DNA of 64,000 nucleotides from Lachnospiraceae bacterium (GCA_022794255.1 JAAWEL010000027.1:1676-65675), one strand, 5' to 3'; positions 21,992-28,566 are shown, numbered from the stretch's first letter. The notes: generated from the sequence alone by a model not told the origin. Numbers and translations: made by a program.

Positions 21992-22017
21992 CGTATATCA
22001 TGAATTCATGATATACG
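21992..22017. repeat. perfect 26-bp palindrome
   Basis: CGTATATCATGAATTCATGATATACG is its own reverse complement. Confidence 0.95.
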
Positions 22018-22025
22018 GCCGAATG

Positions 22026-22265
22026 CCTTCGCCCGTCCTCCGCAGTACTACCCACGGGAGTATCTGGTACGCTGTGCCATTGTTGCCATCCAATGAAGCC
22101 ATGCACGCAGGCGCTCGTATAGTCTGTTCTGTTCCAACTGTTGAGAAATACAGACGCCCTTGGCTATGGGCATCCCACGGAATGAAGCATCAGCCCCTTT
22201 ACCATAATCTTCCTCCCTGCCGTATAGCAGGGATTTCCTGTCAAAAATGACTGCACCAGCTTTAT
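22026..22265 (-). pseudogene. phage N-acetylmuramoyl-L-alanine amidase (endolysin) pseudogene
   Basis: Reads IKLVQSFLTGNPCYTAGRKIMVKGLMLHSVGCP*PRASVFLNSWNRTDYTSACVHGFI, frameshift, DGNNGTAYQILPW; ATA in place of the start codon, an in-frame TAG, and truncated; follows the holin. Confidence 0.85.
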
Positions 22266-22283
22266 AATCAATCATCTCCCTTT

Positions 22284-22688
22284 TCATTTCTCCTCCCGGT
22301 CATGAAGCTGCTCTAGCACCTCCTTCATCTTCTCCGGGATGGGAAGTCCTAAGTGCGCCGCATTCTCCAAAAGGCTCACGCCCTCATTGGAGATATAGAA
22401 GAAAATCACTGCAGTACGCAGCACGCTCCCTGTCCCGATAACCTGCACTTCGAGGATGTTGGCAATCCCCACAAGCAGGAAAATCATCACCTTCTGGCAG
22501 ATGCCTTTAAATCCCACCTCGCTGGACAACCTCTTGTCCGCCACCGCGCACATCACGCCTGTGACATAATCCACCACAGCAAATGCGATCAGCGCATACA
22601 GCAGACCGTCACAGCCTCCCAAGAAGTAGCCGAGCCACCCTCCAATGGCTACAAAAATGAGCTGGATCGTGTTCCAAAATTCTTTCAT
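22284..22688 (-). CDS. phage holin (toxin secretion/phage lysis holin family)
   Basis: GGWLGYFLGG, VDYVTG, LSSEVGFKG and NEGVSLLENAAHLGLPIP motifs; AAGGAGG RBS. Confidence 0.92.
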   Translation of the reverse strand: MKEFWNTIQLIFVAIGGWLGYFLGGCDGLLYALIAFAVVDYVTGVMCAVADKRLSSEVGFKGICQKVMIFLLVGIANILEVQVIGTGSVLRTAVIFFYISNEGVSLLENAAHLGLPIPEKMKEVLEQLHDREEK

Positions 22689-22983
22689 AGAGAAACCTCC
22701 TTTAAATGATTTTTTGTATAAAAACGTTTACATCCCCCGGAGGGTTTTTGCTCTATAGGACACACTTTCCTATAGAACAAAAAAATCCCCGCTGTATCGT
22801 CAGCAGAGGCTTTTTGATGATCCTGATAATGGAATTTTTCACAGCTGATCCACCAATTCCGCTGCCAAATCAATATCATTTTTCTCGCGAGATACTACCT
22901 GTGAACAGCAACAAATATGCCACATTCTCATAGTAGATGTATTCAAGCTTCAGAATCGAATCGATTCTTCTGTTTCACCATCC

Positions 22984-23581
22984 TTAATCCAGCTTGCGGA
23001 CGGTTATGGATGTGTTGTCTGCCCTACTGACAGTCGCCAAGGAAGTTGTTCGAGGAATTACAGCATTATTAGCGGTAAGATGCACACCAACCAGAACCGG
23101 CGAATTAACAGAGGCCGAATTAGTGCCAACCGTATGATACGAAATCTCATAAGTTCCGTTTGCCACCAGGGAAAACCTACCAGTATTCACAGGATGTACA
23201 ATATCCGTGCCCTTGATAAACAAAGAATCTGTAAAGTAAATGAGCCCATTCCTTCCCGGAGCCTGCGCTACATCACTAACTGACATCAACGCATGCAGCA
23301 CAGGAGCTGGACCTGCAGCTCCCGGAATCCCCTGGGGGCCCTGGGCTCCGGTAGGACCAGTTGGTCCGGTAGACCCTACCGCGTTCACCAGATCAAAGTC
23401 CGGGGACGTTCCCAGCACTCTTACCGGGGAATTTTTGTTTGCACGGTACAAGGTGCCATTCCAGTAAACCAGATCCCCCTGCAGCATCCTCTATTACCAC
23501 AGTTCTGGTTAGTTGTGCAGTTCTAATTACTTCCACAGTTTATATTTCCCCACACCCGGAAGCCATTGGATCATAATACAT
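22984..23581 (-). pseudogene. collagen-like (BclA-type) spore surface protein, disrupted
   Basis: RBS AAGGAG plus MYYDPMASGCG start at 23581, Cys-rich frameshifted segment with stops, then an ORF with GPT/GPQ triplets and a BclA-C-like tail ending SITVRKLD. Confidence 0.65.
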
Positions 23582-23679
23582 ATCATCACTCCTTCTATTT
23601 GTTTCCAGCTGGCTTACTATATGATATGTCCTCAGGTGATTTTGGTTCGTCCCAACGCGGCGGTTTTGTAACCTCTACA

Positions 23680-23935
23680 GAACATAAGGTGAAAAAACCT
23701 GTCCCTCTGGATGAAATCGCCGCTGCTTTGGATGTGATTGACCGCAACACCGCTACGGGTAAGCGTGACTATGCAATGATTATGACAGAGCCTGTCACCG
23801 GGATAAGGTCTGTTGATATCATAAACCTGACTTTTGACGCGATTGACTGGATTAACGGGGAAAACGCTTGCACTTCCTTTAACGACAGACGTTGGAGAAG
23901 CCATTCAGGACTATATATTGAAAGGAACACCTTAA
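23680..23935 (+). pseudogene. tyrosine recombinase/integrase fragment
   Basis: IDRNTATGKRDYAMI...TGIRSVDIINLTFDAIDW (box I Arg), then in another frame LALPLTTDVGEAIQDYILKG; no C-terminal H-x-x-R or Tyr. Confidence 0.8.
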
Positions 23936-24151
23936 TGCTACACGTTATAAAGTCAGCGATGAAGAACTATTAAAAAGGCTTAGCGGCCTAAAATTTATCA
24001 GAAATTTTTATAGTGCTGTTTTCTTGAAACAATGGCCTCACTCATTGTTTTTCTGATAACTCTTTTTTTCTGATAAGGGAGCTTTTTTAACTGGCAATTC
24101 AGGTGTATAAGATGTATAAACGCAAATGCTCTTGTTCATTAAGGGAGTATT

Positions 24152-24330
24152 TGGCAAAATAAAAAATCCCAAAAAGTGTAGTTTTTGGGAATATTCTACT
24201 TATAAAATTTTATAGGCAAATATCCATAGAAAAAAGATTAAGTTTATTGATATTTTGACGATATTATGATAAAGTATAGCTGATTTGTGGCAAAATAAAA
24301 AATCCCAAAAACTACACTTTTTGGGAATAT
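24152..24330. repeat. two 43-bp direct repeats (24152-24194, 24288-24330) whose 24-bp cores (24167-24190, 24303-24326) are perfect inverted repeats
   Basis: TGGCAAAATAAAAAATCCCAAAAA-[GTGTAG or CTACAC]-TTTTTGGGAATAT; only the central hexamer differs, and the two hexamers are reverse complements. Confidence 0.95.
24238..24275 (+). promoter_or_regulatory. sigma28 (FliA/SigD)-like promoter with an overlapping sigmaA-like promoter
   Basis: TTAAGTTT-N11-GACGATAT (24238-24264) vs consensus TAAAGTTT-N11-GCCGATAW; also TTGATA-N17-TAAAGT with TG (24247-24275). Confidence 0.6.
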
Positions 24331-24397
24331 AATGAGAGAACTTGGAAATGCGTTGCAATTTATATTTATAAGCTTCAGAGGCAAAAAGAGAGGAAGA

Positions 24398-25777
24398 ATG
24401 TCATCAGATAAGATATGTAAAACGGTTCGTCAATATAATAAAGTTCCAATTTCTAAAGAAGATATGGGAAAGCTGCAGGATATAGCGATTGACTACAGCA
24501 AAGTAAAAAATTATGTCTATGACCGTTTTGGCGGAATTGGAAGTCTTTCAAAGCTGTACCCGGGATATACGATACAAAATGAGATGACTGCCACAGATCT
24601 GAGAAAAATATTGGGATTGCCAAGTGTTTATTTTTATCTTGCAATTTTTGAGGCGCTGGCTGATATCAAAGGGCAATGGAACCGGACTAAATCCAAGTTA
24701 TTGCTGCTCATAGGAACCAATGATAATTTCACATCAGAGGAAAAGCATTATCTTCGGTTTGTTTTGAAGGTTAATAATGCTTTTTCGGCAATACTTAATC
24801 AGAAGCCTATGGAACTTTCTCAGGAGATACAGAAAAAATATGAGGAGGTAGCCATTGGCATTAATAAGGAAAGGCTTCATCGCTATCTGTGCAGGCAGGT
24901 AAGAAAATATCATGTTAAACAGCATACGGACGGAGCAAAGGGATTCGCTATTACAGAACGGGCTTACCGGTATGGAAATCATGGAATCTATCTGTCCACG
25001 AAACAAAACCGAAAACGGATTTTTGTGCCATTGACAGACAACAACCAGTATAAGAGCCAGCTGTACATAAAGCTTTATCCGGACAGGGAAAGCATTGAGA
25101 TTATGGTGCCCGTTTATATGGAGCCCCGCTCCTTTGAAGAATATACCAATCAAATAGGTATTTCTATTGGCATGTTTACTATGTTGACTACCAACGATGG
25201 TCATTGCTATGGAAAAGAATTTGGAAAATATCAGACCTATTACTCAGAGTGGATTCGGAATCAGACTATAAGCTACAGCTGCAACCGGGGAGATAATCCG
25301 GGAAGAAGAAAATATTATGCAAAAAAGAAAAAACTTGAAGAACAGCTCCATGCCTATATTAATCAGGAGCTTAATCTCTTTTTTAGACAGGAGAAGCCGC
25401 AGACTATTTATATGGCTAAGCTCCCCGAGCCCCAAAAAAGTGGGGCGGTTCCCAAGATCAATAATCAGGTGACTATGTGGCAGAGAGGGTATATCCGCAG
25501 CCGTCTGATACAAAAATCCAGAGAAAAATCTGTGGAGGTTGTGGAGGTGTTGGGAAAAGACATTAGCAGAGAGTGCAGCCAATGCAGGGAGATGGGGAGT
25601 CAAAAAGACGGAATCTTTATCTGCGAACGATGTGGGTATTCAGCGGATAAAAAGCTAAATACTGCTCAAAACGTATGGAAGCGTGGAGTGGAAGGAAGGA
25701 TCATAAGAACAACAGTTTGGATGAATGCTGGTTCCAAACCAGGATTTTACCGCAAGGACCAGACAGAAGGTTCATGA
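24398..25777 (+). CDS. TnpB/Cas12f-like protein with inactivated RuvC (TldR-like), 459 aa
   Basis: RuvC-I IGISIG (D replaced by S256), RuvC-II IYMAKL (E replaced by A340), intact Zn finger CSQC...CERC, RuvC-III DKKLNTAQNV (D replaced by K419); no tnpA nearby. Confidence 0.82.
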   Translation: MSSDKICKTVRQYNKVPISKEDMGKLQDIAIDYSKVKNYVYDRFGGIGSLSKLYPGYTIQNEMTATDLRKILGLPSVYFYLAIFEALADIKGQWNRTKSKLLLLIGTNDNFTSEEKHYLRFVLKVNNAFSAILNQKPMELSQEIQKKYEEVAIGINKERLHRYLCRQVRKYHVKQHTDGAKGFAITERAYRYGNHGIYLSTKQNRKRIFVPLTDNNQYKSQLYIKLYPDRESIEIMVPVYMEPRSFEEYTNQIGISIGMFTMLTTNDGHCYGKEFGKYQTYYSEWIRNQTISYSCNRGDNPGRRKYYAKKKKLEEQLHAYINQELNLFFRQEKPQTIYMAKLPEPQKSGAVPKINNQVTMWQRGYIRSRLIQKSREKSVEVVEVLGKDISRECSQCREMGSQKDGIFICERCGYSADKKLNTAQNVWKRGVEGRIIRTTVWMNAGSKPGFYRKDQTEGS

Positions 25778-26000
25778 TATAAAAAACAAACGGCATTAGA
25801 AGGCAGGAAAAGCCTGCGCATTGGGTATGCCAAGACCTTGGGAACATCGATTCTTTTTCAAGGAGAGATGACGTAGCAGGGAGCGAAGTGAAGCTGTCCG
25901 AGCGGCTCCTTCACATCACACAAAAAGTGACCAATATGCCTTATTTTAAAAGCTATGCACAAGACAGACCAAAATTGCGGGTATAACAAAAAGAATGGAA
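25727..26000 (+). ncRNA. candidate omega/guide RNA of the TnpB-like gene
   Basis: Series of hairpins directly downstream of and overlapping the gene end, where TnpB omegaRNAs lie; boundaries uncertain. Confidence 0.4.
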
Positions 26001-26007
26001 GATAACA

Positions 26008-28566
26008 ATGAGAAGGACATACAAAAAGCAGGCAGAAGATTTTATCAAGCTGTTAGAACAGGTGCATACAGAGATAAAAAAGTCTATAGAAGCAAAAAAG
26101 TATAATACAGCCATGGAGCTTTTAGGTCAATGCCAGGAAGGCGCCATTGGGCTGGGTAATCTGATAGAGAAAGAGGAGGGAGAAGATTTTGTCACGATTC
26201 CTCTTTTACAGTCTTACTGTGAAGTTACCTATCAATTGTACAAAGGCCTGTACCAAAAGGAAGATTTGCCTGGAAACAGGGCATACAAAAATCTCAAAAA
26301 GGCTTTGATCCAGATAGAAAACAGTGTAAGAAATGATATCAAAGGACGGCTGGAAATCGTGTTTCTTCCTTATAAGGCATCCATGTGGGACAGCATGGAA
26401 AGTGTCTGGCAGGCAGCAGCAGCGGATCCGGACTGCAGCACCTATGTTGTGCCGATTCCATACTATGAGAGAAACGAAGAGGGTGTGCTGAACAAATACT
26501 GCTATGAGGGAGATCAAATGCCGGATTATGTGCCAGTGACCTCCTATAATGCCTACAATTTCAAAGATCAAATGCCAGATGTGATCTATATTCACAATCC
26601 ATACGACCAGGGGAATTATGTGACCAGTATTGACCCCAGATTTTATTCTGGTGAATTAAAAAAATGCACTTCATGTCTTGTATATATTCCCTATTATAGT
26701 ACTGCGGGTGGAATGGGCGAGGGACAAAGCCTTTGTCAGGCGTATTTTAATGTGGACCATATTGTCGTCCAGTCAAAGAAATTCATCAAATTCTTTGACC
26801 CGGTTATTCCGGAAGAAAAGTTTTTGCCCTTGGGTTCTCCCAAATTTGACCGGGTGATTCAAATGTGCAGCAATCCGCCGAAAGCGCCAGAAAGCTGGAA
26901 GAAAAAAATGGAAGGCCGGAAGGTTTATTTTTATAACACAAGCATTAACGGAATGTTGGCAGATACAAAGACCTTTCTGAAAAAAATGGAATATGTGTTC
27001 CAATGTTTTGAGAACCGGCCGGATTCCTGTCTGTTGTGGCGTCCTCATCCTCTGCTGGAATCCACCTTTGCGTCTATGAGGAAAGAGTATAAGCCCTGGT
27101 ATGACCGGCTGAAAAAGCAATTTGCAGATGCAAATCTGGGAATATACGATGACACTTCAGATATCACCAGCACAATTGCCCTGTCAGATGCTTATATCGG
27201 GGACGCAGGAACAAGTGTCACCTCTCTTTTTGGCATTGTGGGAAAACCCCTGTTTATATTCAATAACCAGATTAACACTCTTCCCCAGTCCGATGACTGG
27301 AGGGGCGAAAAGATTAATCTGGCGTTGGACGTTTGGGAAAATGACCGATACCAGATTACCCAAAATAACCAGCTGTGGTTTTCTGAAAAAAATGATTACC
27401 ACTATAAATTTTATATGGATCTGGGAACCGGATATTCGGGAGGCAGCTATTACATAAGAGCCCTGGAAATCAAAGATAAGATATATGTCCTTCCGGGAAA
27501 CGCTCAGAATCTGCTGATTATTGAAAACAAAAAAATAAGAAGGATTGATTTTAAGACAAAAATCCCACAGCCGGGAGCTTTTTACAGTTACTGGTACAAT
27601 GAAAAATATATTTTCCTGATTCCCTTTCAGTATCCGCTGCTTCTCCGGTTCAATATAGAAACAGAAGAATTGCAGGGGATAGAGGGCATCCGGCCGTTCA
27701 ATGTGCGAAATATAAATGGAGAATGGCGGGCCGGAGGTGTGGGTATATACGGCAATGAACTGGTTTTTGCCTCCCCAAAGGACAATGAATTTATCTTCAT
27801 AGATATAAATACATTGCGGGCCAGAGGGTTGTGCAGCCATTCCCATTGTAATCTTGGAACCCAGGGAATCATAAATGAAGGGGATGAGTTGTGGCTGATG
27901 CCCATGAACGGCATGACTATTACCTGTTGGAATCCAAAGACAGGACAGGTGAGAGAATATGATGATCTGCCCGGTGATTTTAAGTCTGTTCGGTGGCCAC
28001 AGGAGCAGGAATGTAGGGAACGGCCCTTTTTGAATCTGGTATTTTGGAGAGTGAGCGGGAAAGAAAATATTGTCATAGCTCCATGTTGGGGGAATATGTA
28101 TCTGACTCTGGACCGGGAGACTGGAAAAATGGAGAAATGGGAGCCGCCGGTTCCTTTTGTTAATCGTGGAAAAAACGGCTATTTTGCTGCCTCAGGTATG
28201 GGGAGTTTCTGTGTCACCTACCCACGGATGGGAAAGGCTGACTGCCGGATCTGGTATGCGCCAGAGAGAAAGCTCTATGATATCAACATTGACACAAAGG
28301 AATATAAAGAGATCGAAATCAATTTTGATTACCAGGATCTTCGGGAGCATGAGTGCGGATTTATGGAGGAATCGGAGTGGATGCAGTATTGTCTCAATGA
28401 AAGTGCATTTAACTCTCTGAAAGATTTTCTGGATGGAAGGATAACCGGCAATCCCTTTGACAGAGAAAGGCAGATCCGGGCGTTTTCAAAAATAAACGCA
28501 TCAACAGACGGGGCCTGCGGGAAGCGGATTCACCGTTTTGTAAAGGGAAGGCTGGGGGATTGCTGA
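26008..28566 (+). CDS. CDP-glycerol glycerophosphotransferase-like protein with N-terminal helical bundle and C-terminal beta-rich domain
   Basis: FLPYKASMWDS, YIHNPYD, LGSPKFD, LWRPHPL and SDAYIGD motifs. Confidence 0.75.
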   Translation: MRRTYKKQAEDFIKLLEQVHTEIKKSIEAKKYNTAMELLGQCQEGAIGLGNLIEKEEGEDFVTIPLLQSYCEVTYQLYKGLYQKEDLPGNRAYKNLKKALIQIENSVRNDIKGRLEIVFLPYKASMWDSMESVWQAAAADPDCSTYVVPIPYYERNEEGVLNKYCYEGDQMPDYVPVTSYNAYNFKDQMPDVIYIHNPYDQGNYVTSIDPRFYSGELKKCTSCLVYIPYYSTAGGMGEGQSLCQAYFNVDHIVVQSKKFIKFFDPVIPEEKFLPLGSPKFDRVIQMCSNPPKAPESWKKKMEGRKVYFYNTSINGMLADTKTFLKKMEYVFQCFENRPDSCLLWRPHPLLESTFASMRKEYKPWYDRLKKQFADANLGIYDDTSDITSTIALSDAYIGDAGTSVTSLFGIVGKPLFIFNNQINTLPQSDDWRGEKINLALDVWENDRYQITQNNQLWFSEKNDYHYKFYMDLGTGYSGGSYYIRALEIKDKIYVLPGNAQNLLIIENKKIRRIDFKTKIPQPGAFYSYWYNEKYIFLIPFQYPLLLRFNIETEELQGIEGIRPFNVRNINGEWRAGGVGIYGNELVFASPKDNEFIFIDINTLRARGLCSHSHCNLGTQGIINEGDELWLMPMNGMTITCWNPKTGQVREYDDLPGDFKSVRWPQEQECRERPFLNLVFWRVSGKENIVIAPCWGNMYLTLDRETGKMEKWEPPVPFVNRGKNGYFAASGMGSFCVTYPRMGKADCRIWYAPERKLYDINIDTKEYKEIEINFDYQDLREHECGFMEESEWMQYCLNESAFNSLKDFLDGRITGNPFDRERQIRAFSKINASTDGACGKRIHRFVKGRLGDC

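Follow-up and report, generated by a model that had tools for sequence, protein, structure and literature searches.

A nuclease-dead TnpB-like protein and its structured RNA behind a predicted invertible promoter in glycan loci of mouse-gut Lachnospiraceae

Capsule loci of Bacteroides begin with an invertible promoter, followed by upxY and upxZ and then by the biosynthesis genes; the invertase is sometimes encoded elsewhere. Hin and Gin inversion switches act at hix and gix sites. Surface variation of Lachnospiraceae has been little studied compared with that of Bacteroides. TnpB-derived RNA-guided transcription factors (TldRs) were described in 2023-24, and three clades had been characterised as of September 2026, with seeds of ~6 nt and guides down to 9 nt. 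According to the authors, further TnpB domestications remain uncharacterised (doi 10.64898/2026.09.22.753285). A stretch of 64,000 nucleotides from a Lachnospiraceae bacterium (GCA_022794255.1 JAAWEL010000027.1:1676-65675), referred to as the window, was analysed, with positions counted from its first letter. An earlier note, made from the sequence alone, had singled out the gene at 24398-25777 as TnpB-like with all three catalytic residues replaced. This gene, an inverton upstream and a structured RNA behind it form one conserved unit, which heads a different glycan operon at each of 3-7 places per genome in five multi-copy genomes. In mouse-gut Lachnospiraceae the protein probably serves as an RNA-guided regulator of surface variation.

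Loss of the RuvC triad under purifying selection

24398-25777, plus strand: nuclease-dead TnpB-like gene, 459 aa; the conserved part of the protein ends at ~25708 (residue 437), and the rest is read-through into the RNA scaffold

The frame opens with the ATG at 24398, stays uninterrupted for 459 codons and closes with the TGA at 25775-25777; a GAGAGGAAGA stretch lies directly before the ATG. The motifs IGISIG (residues 253-258), IYMAKL (337-342) and DKKLN (417-421) place S256, A340 and K419 where the RuvC Asp-Glu-Asp residues would stand. The zinc ribbon CSQC...CERC is intact (C393, C396, C409 and C412). Translation bore out the complete frame and finger given in the earlier note.

Residue equivalence was examined by profile and structure alignment. 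HMMER placed TIYMAKL opposite TIQMEDL, and SADKKLN opposite SANADFN, of a solved Cas12f (9nzq). A family alignment of 31 sequences showed G[IV]DKGY, E[DN]L and DAD.NAA in the same columns in relatives at 24-30% identity; all three acids were gone in every sampled relative at 33% identity or above. An AlphaFold2 model (mean predicted local distance difference test score, pLDDT, 88.4) was compared with solved structures using Foldseek and matched TnpB and Cas12f over its whole length (AsCas12f 8j3r at E 9e-13; ISFba1 TnpB 8iaz and ISDra2 TnpB 8h1j and 8exa; range E 1e-8 to 1e-12). HMMER, the family alignment and AlphaFold2/Foldseek agree on the replacement of the triad, and the three substituted residues, as had been proposed, occupy the former D, E and D columns. 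The sole Pfam domain found was the Cas12f1-like TNB (PF07282, E 1.4e-7, above its cutoff), and the NCBIfam guided_TnpB model scored 30 bits, far under its cutoff of 100. Alignment and model together confirm the predicted product of 24398-25777 as a full-length protein of TnpB/Cas12f fold (WED, REC, RuvC and zinc ribbon) that lacks the RuvC triad.

By our reading of the model, the helices at ~20-171 in the N-terminal half occupy the place of the TnpB REC lobe. A long helical insertion had been proposed there; no sign of one was seen. Homologues are usually 437 aa long. The usual stop codon has been lost in the window, so that translation continues into conserved non-coding sequence, and the C-terminal 22 residues (438-459) are read-through into the downstream RNA, with pLDDT below 50 at 440-459.

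A word-based protein search yielded 1630 homologues, mostly from mouse-gut Lachnospiraceae, the closest being 60-86% identical. Collections holding one genome per species contained 410 loci, and 7 carriers were found among 200 other genera of the family (one genome sampled per genus). Carriers among named genome records were Sporofaciens musculi WCA-9-b2, Schaedlerella arabinosiphila DSM 106076, Acetatifactor muris DSM 23669 and Lachnospiraceae bacterium M18-1. The window's own genome, 87% complete, holds one copy. Five other genomes that were checked hold 3-7 intact copies each; paralogues within a genome are separate loci with a common fixed layout and are not identical to each other.

Orthologues were not mostly pseudogenes, the intact ~437-aa frame being present in nearly all loci examined. 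Ratios of nonsynonymous to synonymous substitution (dN/dS) in unsaturated pairs were 0.07-0.13, indicating purifying selection. Among 20 close homologues, G254, G258, Y338, K341, K419, N421 and the four zinc cysteines are invariant, and the ex-catalytic positions hold S/A, A/V/I/P and K. In a quick maximum-likelihood tree, all 32 of 32 triple mutants fell on one side of a branch (Shimodaira-Hasegawa-like approximate likelihood ratio test, SH-aLRT, 99) and the sequences keeping the triad on the other, which is compatible with a single origin of the loss if the root lies among the active sequences. Identity inside the dead clade falls to ~33%. Dead branches at 36-47% identity retain the downstream RNA and the upstream inverted-repeat pair, and the 47% branch also heads sugar-nucleotide genes. 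Two active relatives were looked up, each on one short contig; one, at ~29% identity, sits behind and overlaps a MerR-helix-turn-helix-resolvase TnpA gene, which is the IS607 arrangement. By sequence, the nearest active relatives are IS607-type TnpBs.

The earlier note had suggested selection for DNA binding without cleavage. A cleavage-free function under selection is strongly supported by the substitution ratios, the intact frames and the clade-wide loss of the triad. The binding half of that suggestion is an inference from the TnpB fold and the omega-RNA-like scaffold. The invertible promoter and the glycan operon, which the earlier note did not link to the protein, are the most informative features as to its role.

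The structured RNA, the invertible segment and the operon

25698-25945, plus strand: omega-RNA-like scaffold, a conserved structured RNA from GGAUCAUAAGAACA to GACCAAUAUGCCUUAUU, with at least seven helices and inserts of variable length

The scaffold is ~250 nt long, and DNA conservation begins at the usual stop codon of the homologues. RNAalifold predicted 48 pairs from an alignment of 31 loci, and compensatory changes occur in 27 of these. A covariance model of the 3' domain (R1) matched the window at 25790-25953 with 129.6 bits. In the alignment of 81 matches to this model, which was fitted to it and is hence biased towards the structure, 97% of cells were paired and 23 of 30 pairs showed double changes. 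None of 500 shuffles attained the observed covariation values, and slid controls paired at 28-47%. The window scaffold's own fold had a z-score of -2.49. In whole genomes (n=4) each gene copy had one adjoining RNA copy on the same strand and there were no orphan RNA copies; the RNA was matched in 76 of 76 sources searched. An Rfam scan of 22000-27000 at E up to 1 returned no described RNA family.

Omega-RNAs are closed by a long-range pairing directly before the guide. Similarly, an invariant AUAAG at the 5' end of the scaffold can pair with an invariant CUUAU at its 3' end, just before the variable 3' sequence. CTTATT is retained in scaffolds whose proposed 5' partner has changed (L028, L062), a hint of constraint beyond pairing.

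Two further observations were made on the scaffold. The variable stem between GAACAUG and CAUGAUGUAGCAGGG contains, in several paralogous loci, 2.6-2.7 tandem copies of a 56-57-nt unit (L070:7474-7620, L066:7548-7703, also L024, L074, L008 and L033), in which two small hairpins were recognised by eye, for example GGTCATCAACC...GGTTGGTGAC and GTGCGC...GCGCAC; the window copy is without these units. In public runs X2 and X3, summed contig depth over the scaffold core (25775-25841) was ~8-17x that of the flanking gene, which probably reflects contigs of related loci or species aligning there and not copy number.

24167-24190, no strand: left recombination site (IRL), near-palindromic and hix-like, TCCCAAAAAGTGTAGTTTTTGGGA; exact reverse complement of 24303-24326
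24191-24302, plus strand: invertible segment with a sigma-70-like promoter, which faces the gene (ON) in the window
24303-24326, no strand: right recombination site (IRR), TCCCAAAAACTACACTTTTTGGGA, the inverted mate of IRL

IRL had no further match in its own genome outside this locus. Both sites are embedded in a 42-nt direct repeat (24154-24195 and 24290-24331) made up of GGCAAAATAAAAAA, the site and ATAT, which is identical in both copies apart from the inverted 6-nt centre. Of 70 distinct homologous loci, ~55 had an equivalent pair (up to 3 mismatches in 20 nt), with the sites ~100-130 bp from each other and 50-100 nt before the start codon. The sites are near-palindromic over 24-26 bp; their half-sites are like TTCTCAAAAAGT, and their 2-bp centre is asymmetric. 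The promoter match lies at 24247-24275 (TTGATA, a 17-nt spacer and TAAAGT, with an upstream TG), and a motif like TTGAC(T/G)-17-TA(G/A)AAT is conserved across loci.

Homologous segments stand at the other loci in either orientation: the promoter faces the gene in 6 loci, the window among them, and points the other way in ~42. Two near-identical pairs of loci (L002/L017 and L032/L034) differ solely in its orientation. Public sequencing runs were compared as contigs. A 723-nt contig of an independent run (X2) has no mismatches to the window, and in it 24191-24302 lies on the opposite strand to both flanks. Every recognisable inverton was OFF in two of the five multi-copy genomes; one copy in G001 (L099) and two in G005 (L103, L105) were without a recognisable inverton. 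Contigs from RNA libraries were 100% identical to the window over 24409-24626 and 24752-24962, a weak hint that the dead TnpB gene is transcribed; such contigs cannot reveal the transcription start.

In at least 10 loci a gene for a ~200-aa serine recombinase (PF00239) lies directly upstream. Homologues in the window's own genome were found on contigs C11 and C54 (60-75% identity), with a broken copy on C15, and we infer that PF00239 recombinases of this kind would flip the window's switch. Derivation of the upstream recombinase from the TnpA of IS607 was rejected: like Hin-type and resolvase-type enzymes, the recombinase has its catalytic domain at the N-terminus. The inverton of the window thus has the appearance of a Hin-type invertible promoter in the ON state, the promoter being a consensus match. 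The hairpins at 24167 and 24303 had also been taken for minus-strand terminators; this assignment was dropped, the pair being conserved recombination sites. Each site also scores as a minus-strand terminator-like hairpin with a T-run, and the sites could additionally stop antisense transcription.

26008-63998, plus strand: co-oriented operon for biosynthesis of a cell-surface glycopolymer, ~38 kb, assigned from the map of open reading frames (ORFs) and Pfam

Pfam annotation covered 14 ORFs of the operon, up to 45006. The families were a cytidylyltransferase-GFO/IDH/MocA fusion, aldolase, FGGY kinase, Fe-ADH, NTP transferase, TagF-like Glyphos_transf, DUF5672, RgpF, GT2 glycosyltransferases and GT11, and the product is predicted to be teichoic-like or capsule-like. 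The first gene (26008-28566) encodes an 852-aa protein without a Pfam match. Its N-terminal half appeared TagF-like by eye, and proteins 41-72% identical to its L002 counterpart, some of ~450 aa, recur among genes one to three of many homologous loci. Behind the dead TnpB gene, every locus examined has a co-oriented glycan operon, whose sugar-nucleotide, teichoic or capsule genes differ between loci. Of the seven copies in Sporofaciens musculi (G001), three share a strand and are spaced ~28 kb apart (C2:2158400-2216353), which points to a tandem of three glycan loci that all have an inverton, gene and RNA of their own.

Neighbouring genes were inspected for partners. No helix-turn-helix or sigma partner gene was seen to adjoin the dead TnpB gene at any locus examined. 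Sigma-factor families were absent both from the listed neighbours and from the 25 families that occur most often in the first three genes of 31 downstream operons; none of these 25 was NusG-like. There is no CRISPR array; the 230-nt intergenic region holds only the scaffold. As stated in the earlier note, no transposase adjoins the gene. The upstream ORF at 23566-23973 is a weak tyrosine integrase fragment (PF00589, E 0.01, profile positions 6-58 of 172). The argument drawn there from decayed neighbouring mobile genes proved marginal, this single integrase fragment being what is present. The stretch 22284-23973 holds a phage holin (PF05105), a small ORF with a sub-cutoff BclA_C-like match and a short collagen-like G-x-x run, and the integrase fragment; these could be prophage remnants bordering the glycan locus.

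Proposed role and alternatives

25946-25975, plus strand: junction and putative guide, an A/T-only hexamer (UUAAAA) followed by locus-specific sequence that is the start of the operon leader

Positions +1 to +6 after the scaffold are almost only A/T, and conservation stops at +7. Between close homologues (proteins 80-95% identical) the identity over +7 to +30 was 0.58, against 0.54 in random pairs and 0.80 in the last 60 nt of the scaffold; the sequence diverges even between proteins that are 93% identical. Since conservation ends at the 3' end of the scaffold, the right edge of the unit is placed there, where the right end of a transposon would be.

The 30 nt after the scaffold were searched for targets, in a manner insensitive to guides of ~9 nt. 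No second match above chance was found in the window's own genome (11-mers, and 12-20-mers with mismatches), in the same locus, in one complete genome (by BLAST), in the paralogous loci of 16 multi-copy genomes, or in all 14 loci of two genomes. A 17/20 match at position 6747 of contig C87 in the own genome was discarded as no better than chance. Because the operon leader begins directly after the scaffold, the putative guide has one certain perfect DNA match, its own locus. With no second match, the own locus is the most likely DNA target, and the canonical TldR model of a conserved guide directed against a distant promoter is unsupported here.

Published work on related systems bears on this geometry. 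In IS607 elements the scaffold end UCGG differs by one base from the target-adjacent motif (TAM) TGGG (doi 10.1101/2023.11.20.567912), so that a self-TAM is one mutation away. TldRs block elongation best when the guide equals the coding strand and the TAM side faces the promoter (doi 10.1101/2023.11.30.569447). Together, the likeness of scaffold end and TAM and the geometry of the elongation block make cis binding plausible.

Loss of the triad under purifying selection, the structure of the RNA, inversion of the segment and the conserved order of the genes are established by the data above. We think it somewhat probable that the dead TnpB is a locus-linked cis regulator of the operon it heads, acting through a scaffold ribonucleoprotein. 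A domesticated, TldR-like dead TnpB of IS607-type lineage would bind the omega-RNA-like scaffold encoded at the 3' side of its gene and work as a ribonucleoprotein. A Hin-type serine invertase would flip the 112-bp promoter segment between the two hix-like sites. In the ON orientation transcription would pass through the gene, then the scaffold and then the long glycopolymer operon, and the gene and RNA would be the first products of a phase-variable transcription unit. A guide-bearing RNA would start near GAUCAUAAG and end 9-20 nt after CUUAUU. The complex would act in cis on the operon leader, either on the DNA or on the nascent transcript, and would gate operon expression, negatively as a roadblock with feedback repression or positively, for instance through antitermination. 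A more specific version is possible but doubtful: a portable, self-programming unit in which whatever DNA follows the scaffold serves as the guide, the last bases of the scaffold itself (CTTATT) serve as the TAM, and the complex binds the head of the operon behind it.

Several points weigh against regulation in cis. The promoter in the invertible segment is a consensus match. Trans targets as short as 6-9 nt would have escaped the searches made, and the own genome that was searched for targets is 87% complete. No TAM is known for the clade, CTTATT may be kept simply for the structure of the RNA or for contact with the protein, and the RNA may carry no guide. A repressor that is co-transcribed with its only target is hard to rationalise. 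To our knowledge, TnpB relatives act positively only together with a sigma-factor partner.

A classical TldR acting in trans, whose short guide or seed would repress unlinked TAM-flanked promoters, perhaps those of competing surface loci so that the ON locus silences the others, is considered unlikely. It has the precedent of all three characterised TldR clades, each of which targets, in trans, a paralogue of its associated gene. In Bacteroides, UpxZ from the expressed locus silences competing surface loci; genomes with 3-7 loci would gain from such cross-regulation, the gene would be expressed only when its own inverton is ON, and guides of 9 nt with 6-nt seeds are within what the searches could miss. 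Paralogous loci, one complete genome and the own genome nevertheless gave no above-chance match of the 30 nt after the scaffold, the single-copy genome of the window offers no paralogous locus to silence, and the post-scaffold sequence is unconserved even at 93% protein identity, unlike the guide-target pairs of fliC-associated TldRs. That the protein binds the scaffold within the nascent leader, independently of any guide, and serves antitermination, mRNA stabilisation or processing, is quite unlikely; in outcome this would overlap with regulation in cis. Long polysaccharide operons usually carry antitermination elements where the scaffold is located (the leaders targeted by UpxY, LoaP leaders, the EAR RNA). 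The operon is ~38 kb long and its counterparts lack a NusG-like family in the sample given above, the post-scaffold sequence is unconstrained, and a positive role would account for the strong purifying selection. On the other side, no TnpB or Cas12 relative is known to act in this way, and the protein has kept all the parts with which R-loops are formed (WED, REC, RuvC and zinc ribbon). CTTATT, too, is kept in L028 and L062 despite the changed pairing partner.

A decaying or selfish IS607-type remnant with no host function is highly improbable. Some records label homologues as transposases, and the weak integrase fragment lies upstream. Such a remnant is at odds with a dN/dS of ~0.1, with intact copies in every genome searched, with the missing TnpA and single copy in the own genome, and with a position relative to inverton and operon that is fixed across a clade diverged to 33% identity.

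Were regulation in cis by a guide to hold, it would constitute a new regulatory logic, in which an RNA-guided factor targets its own locus without guide-target co-evolution, and possibly a compact design for synthetic gene control. Each phase-variable surface-glycan operon would have its own gate, whether roadblock or activator. The clade is large (the 1630 homologues and 410 loci), deeply diverged (~33% identity) and tied to the phase-variable surface of Lachnospiraceae.

Comparison with described systems

The locus was compared with five groups of described systems. TldRs, which are associated with fliC, oppF or csrA (doi 10.1101/2023.11.30.569447, doi 10.64898/2026.09.22.753285), share with it the TnpB fold, a RuvC triad lost throughout the clade, a guide-RNA-like scaffold encoded immediately behind the gene, the lack of a transposase and a stable tie to cell-surface genes of the host. 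The window's clade differs in having IS607-type TnpBs as its nearest active relatives, in keeping the full C-terminal zinc ribbon and RuvC lobe where many TldRs are truncated, and in its invariant lysines in or beside the ex-catalytic positions. It also appears to be driven by an invertible promoter, heads the associated operon and reaches up to 7 copies per genome; in the searches made it was without a TAM-flanked trans target, and its putative guide is unconserved. The main texts of both TldR papers mention no Lachnospiraceae and no TldR clade tied to polysaccharide loci. No paper was found that links a dead TnpB to invertons, phase variation or glycan loci, the published supplementary list of 506 dead TnpBs being outside this comparison.

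Among active proteins, IS607-family TnpBs with their omega-RNA (such as CboTnpB, doi 10.1101/2023.11.20.567912) are closest in sequence, and their scaffold likewise begins at the end of the ORF; its 3' end resembles the TAM. The window's protein, unlike them, is nuclease dead, and its loci have no TnpA, no transposon ends, non-identical copies and a fixed context. The dCas12f-sigmaE systems of Bacteroidetes (doi 10.1038/s41586-026-10166-7) are similar as dead miniature type V relatives with RNA-guided control of operons from a target just upstream of the regulated genes. They belong to another phylum, and the loci examined here are without a sigma or helix-turn-helix partner and without a CRISPR array. 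A dCas12f-sigmaE structure (9n9c) ranked only 41st in Foldseek against the window's model.

The inverton resembles Hin and Gin switches in its inverted 24-26-bp imperfect palindromes with half-sites like TTCTCAAAAAGT and an asymmetric 2-bp centre, and in the ~200-aa serine recombinase with an N-terminal catalytic domain. The segment of the window differs in being very short (~100-130 bp across loci) and in carrying only a promoter. With the capsule loci of Bacteroides the window's clade shares several phase-variable glycan loci per genome, a small serine-invertase inverton at each and a locus-linked regulator as the first gene. The regulator here would be a TnpB-derived protein with an RNA in place of the NusG-like UpxY and UpxZ, and the phylum is another, which makes the likeness one of analogy, not homology.

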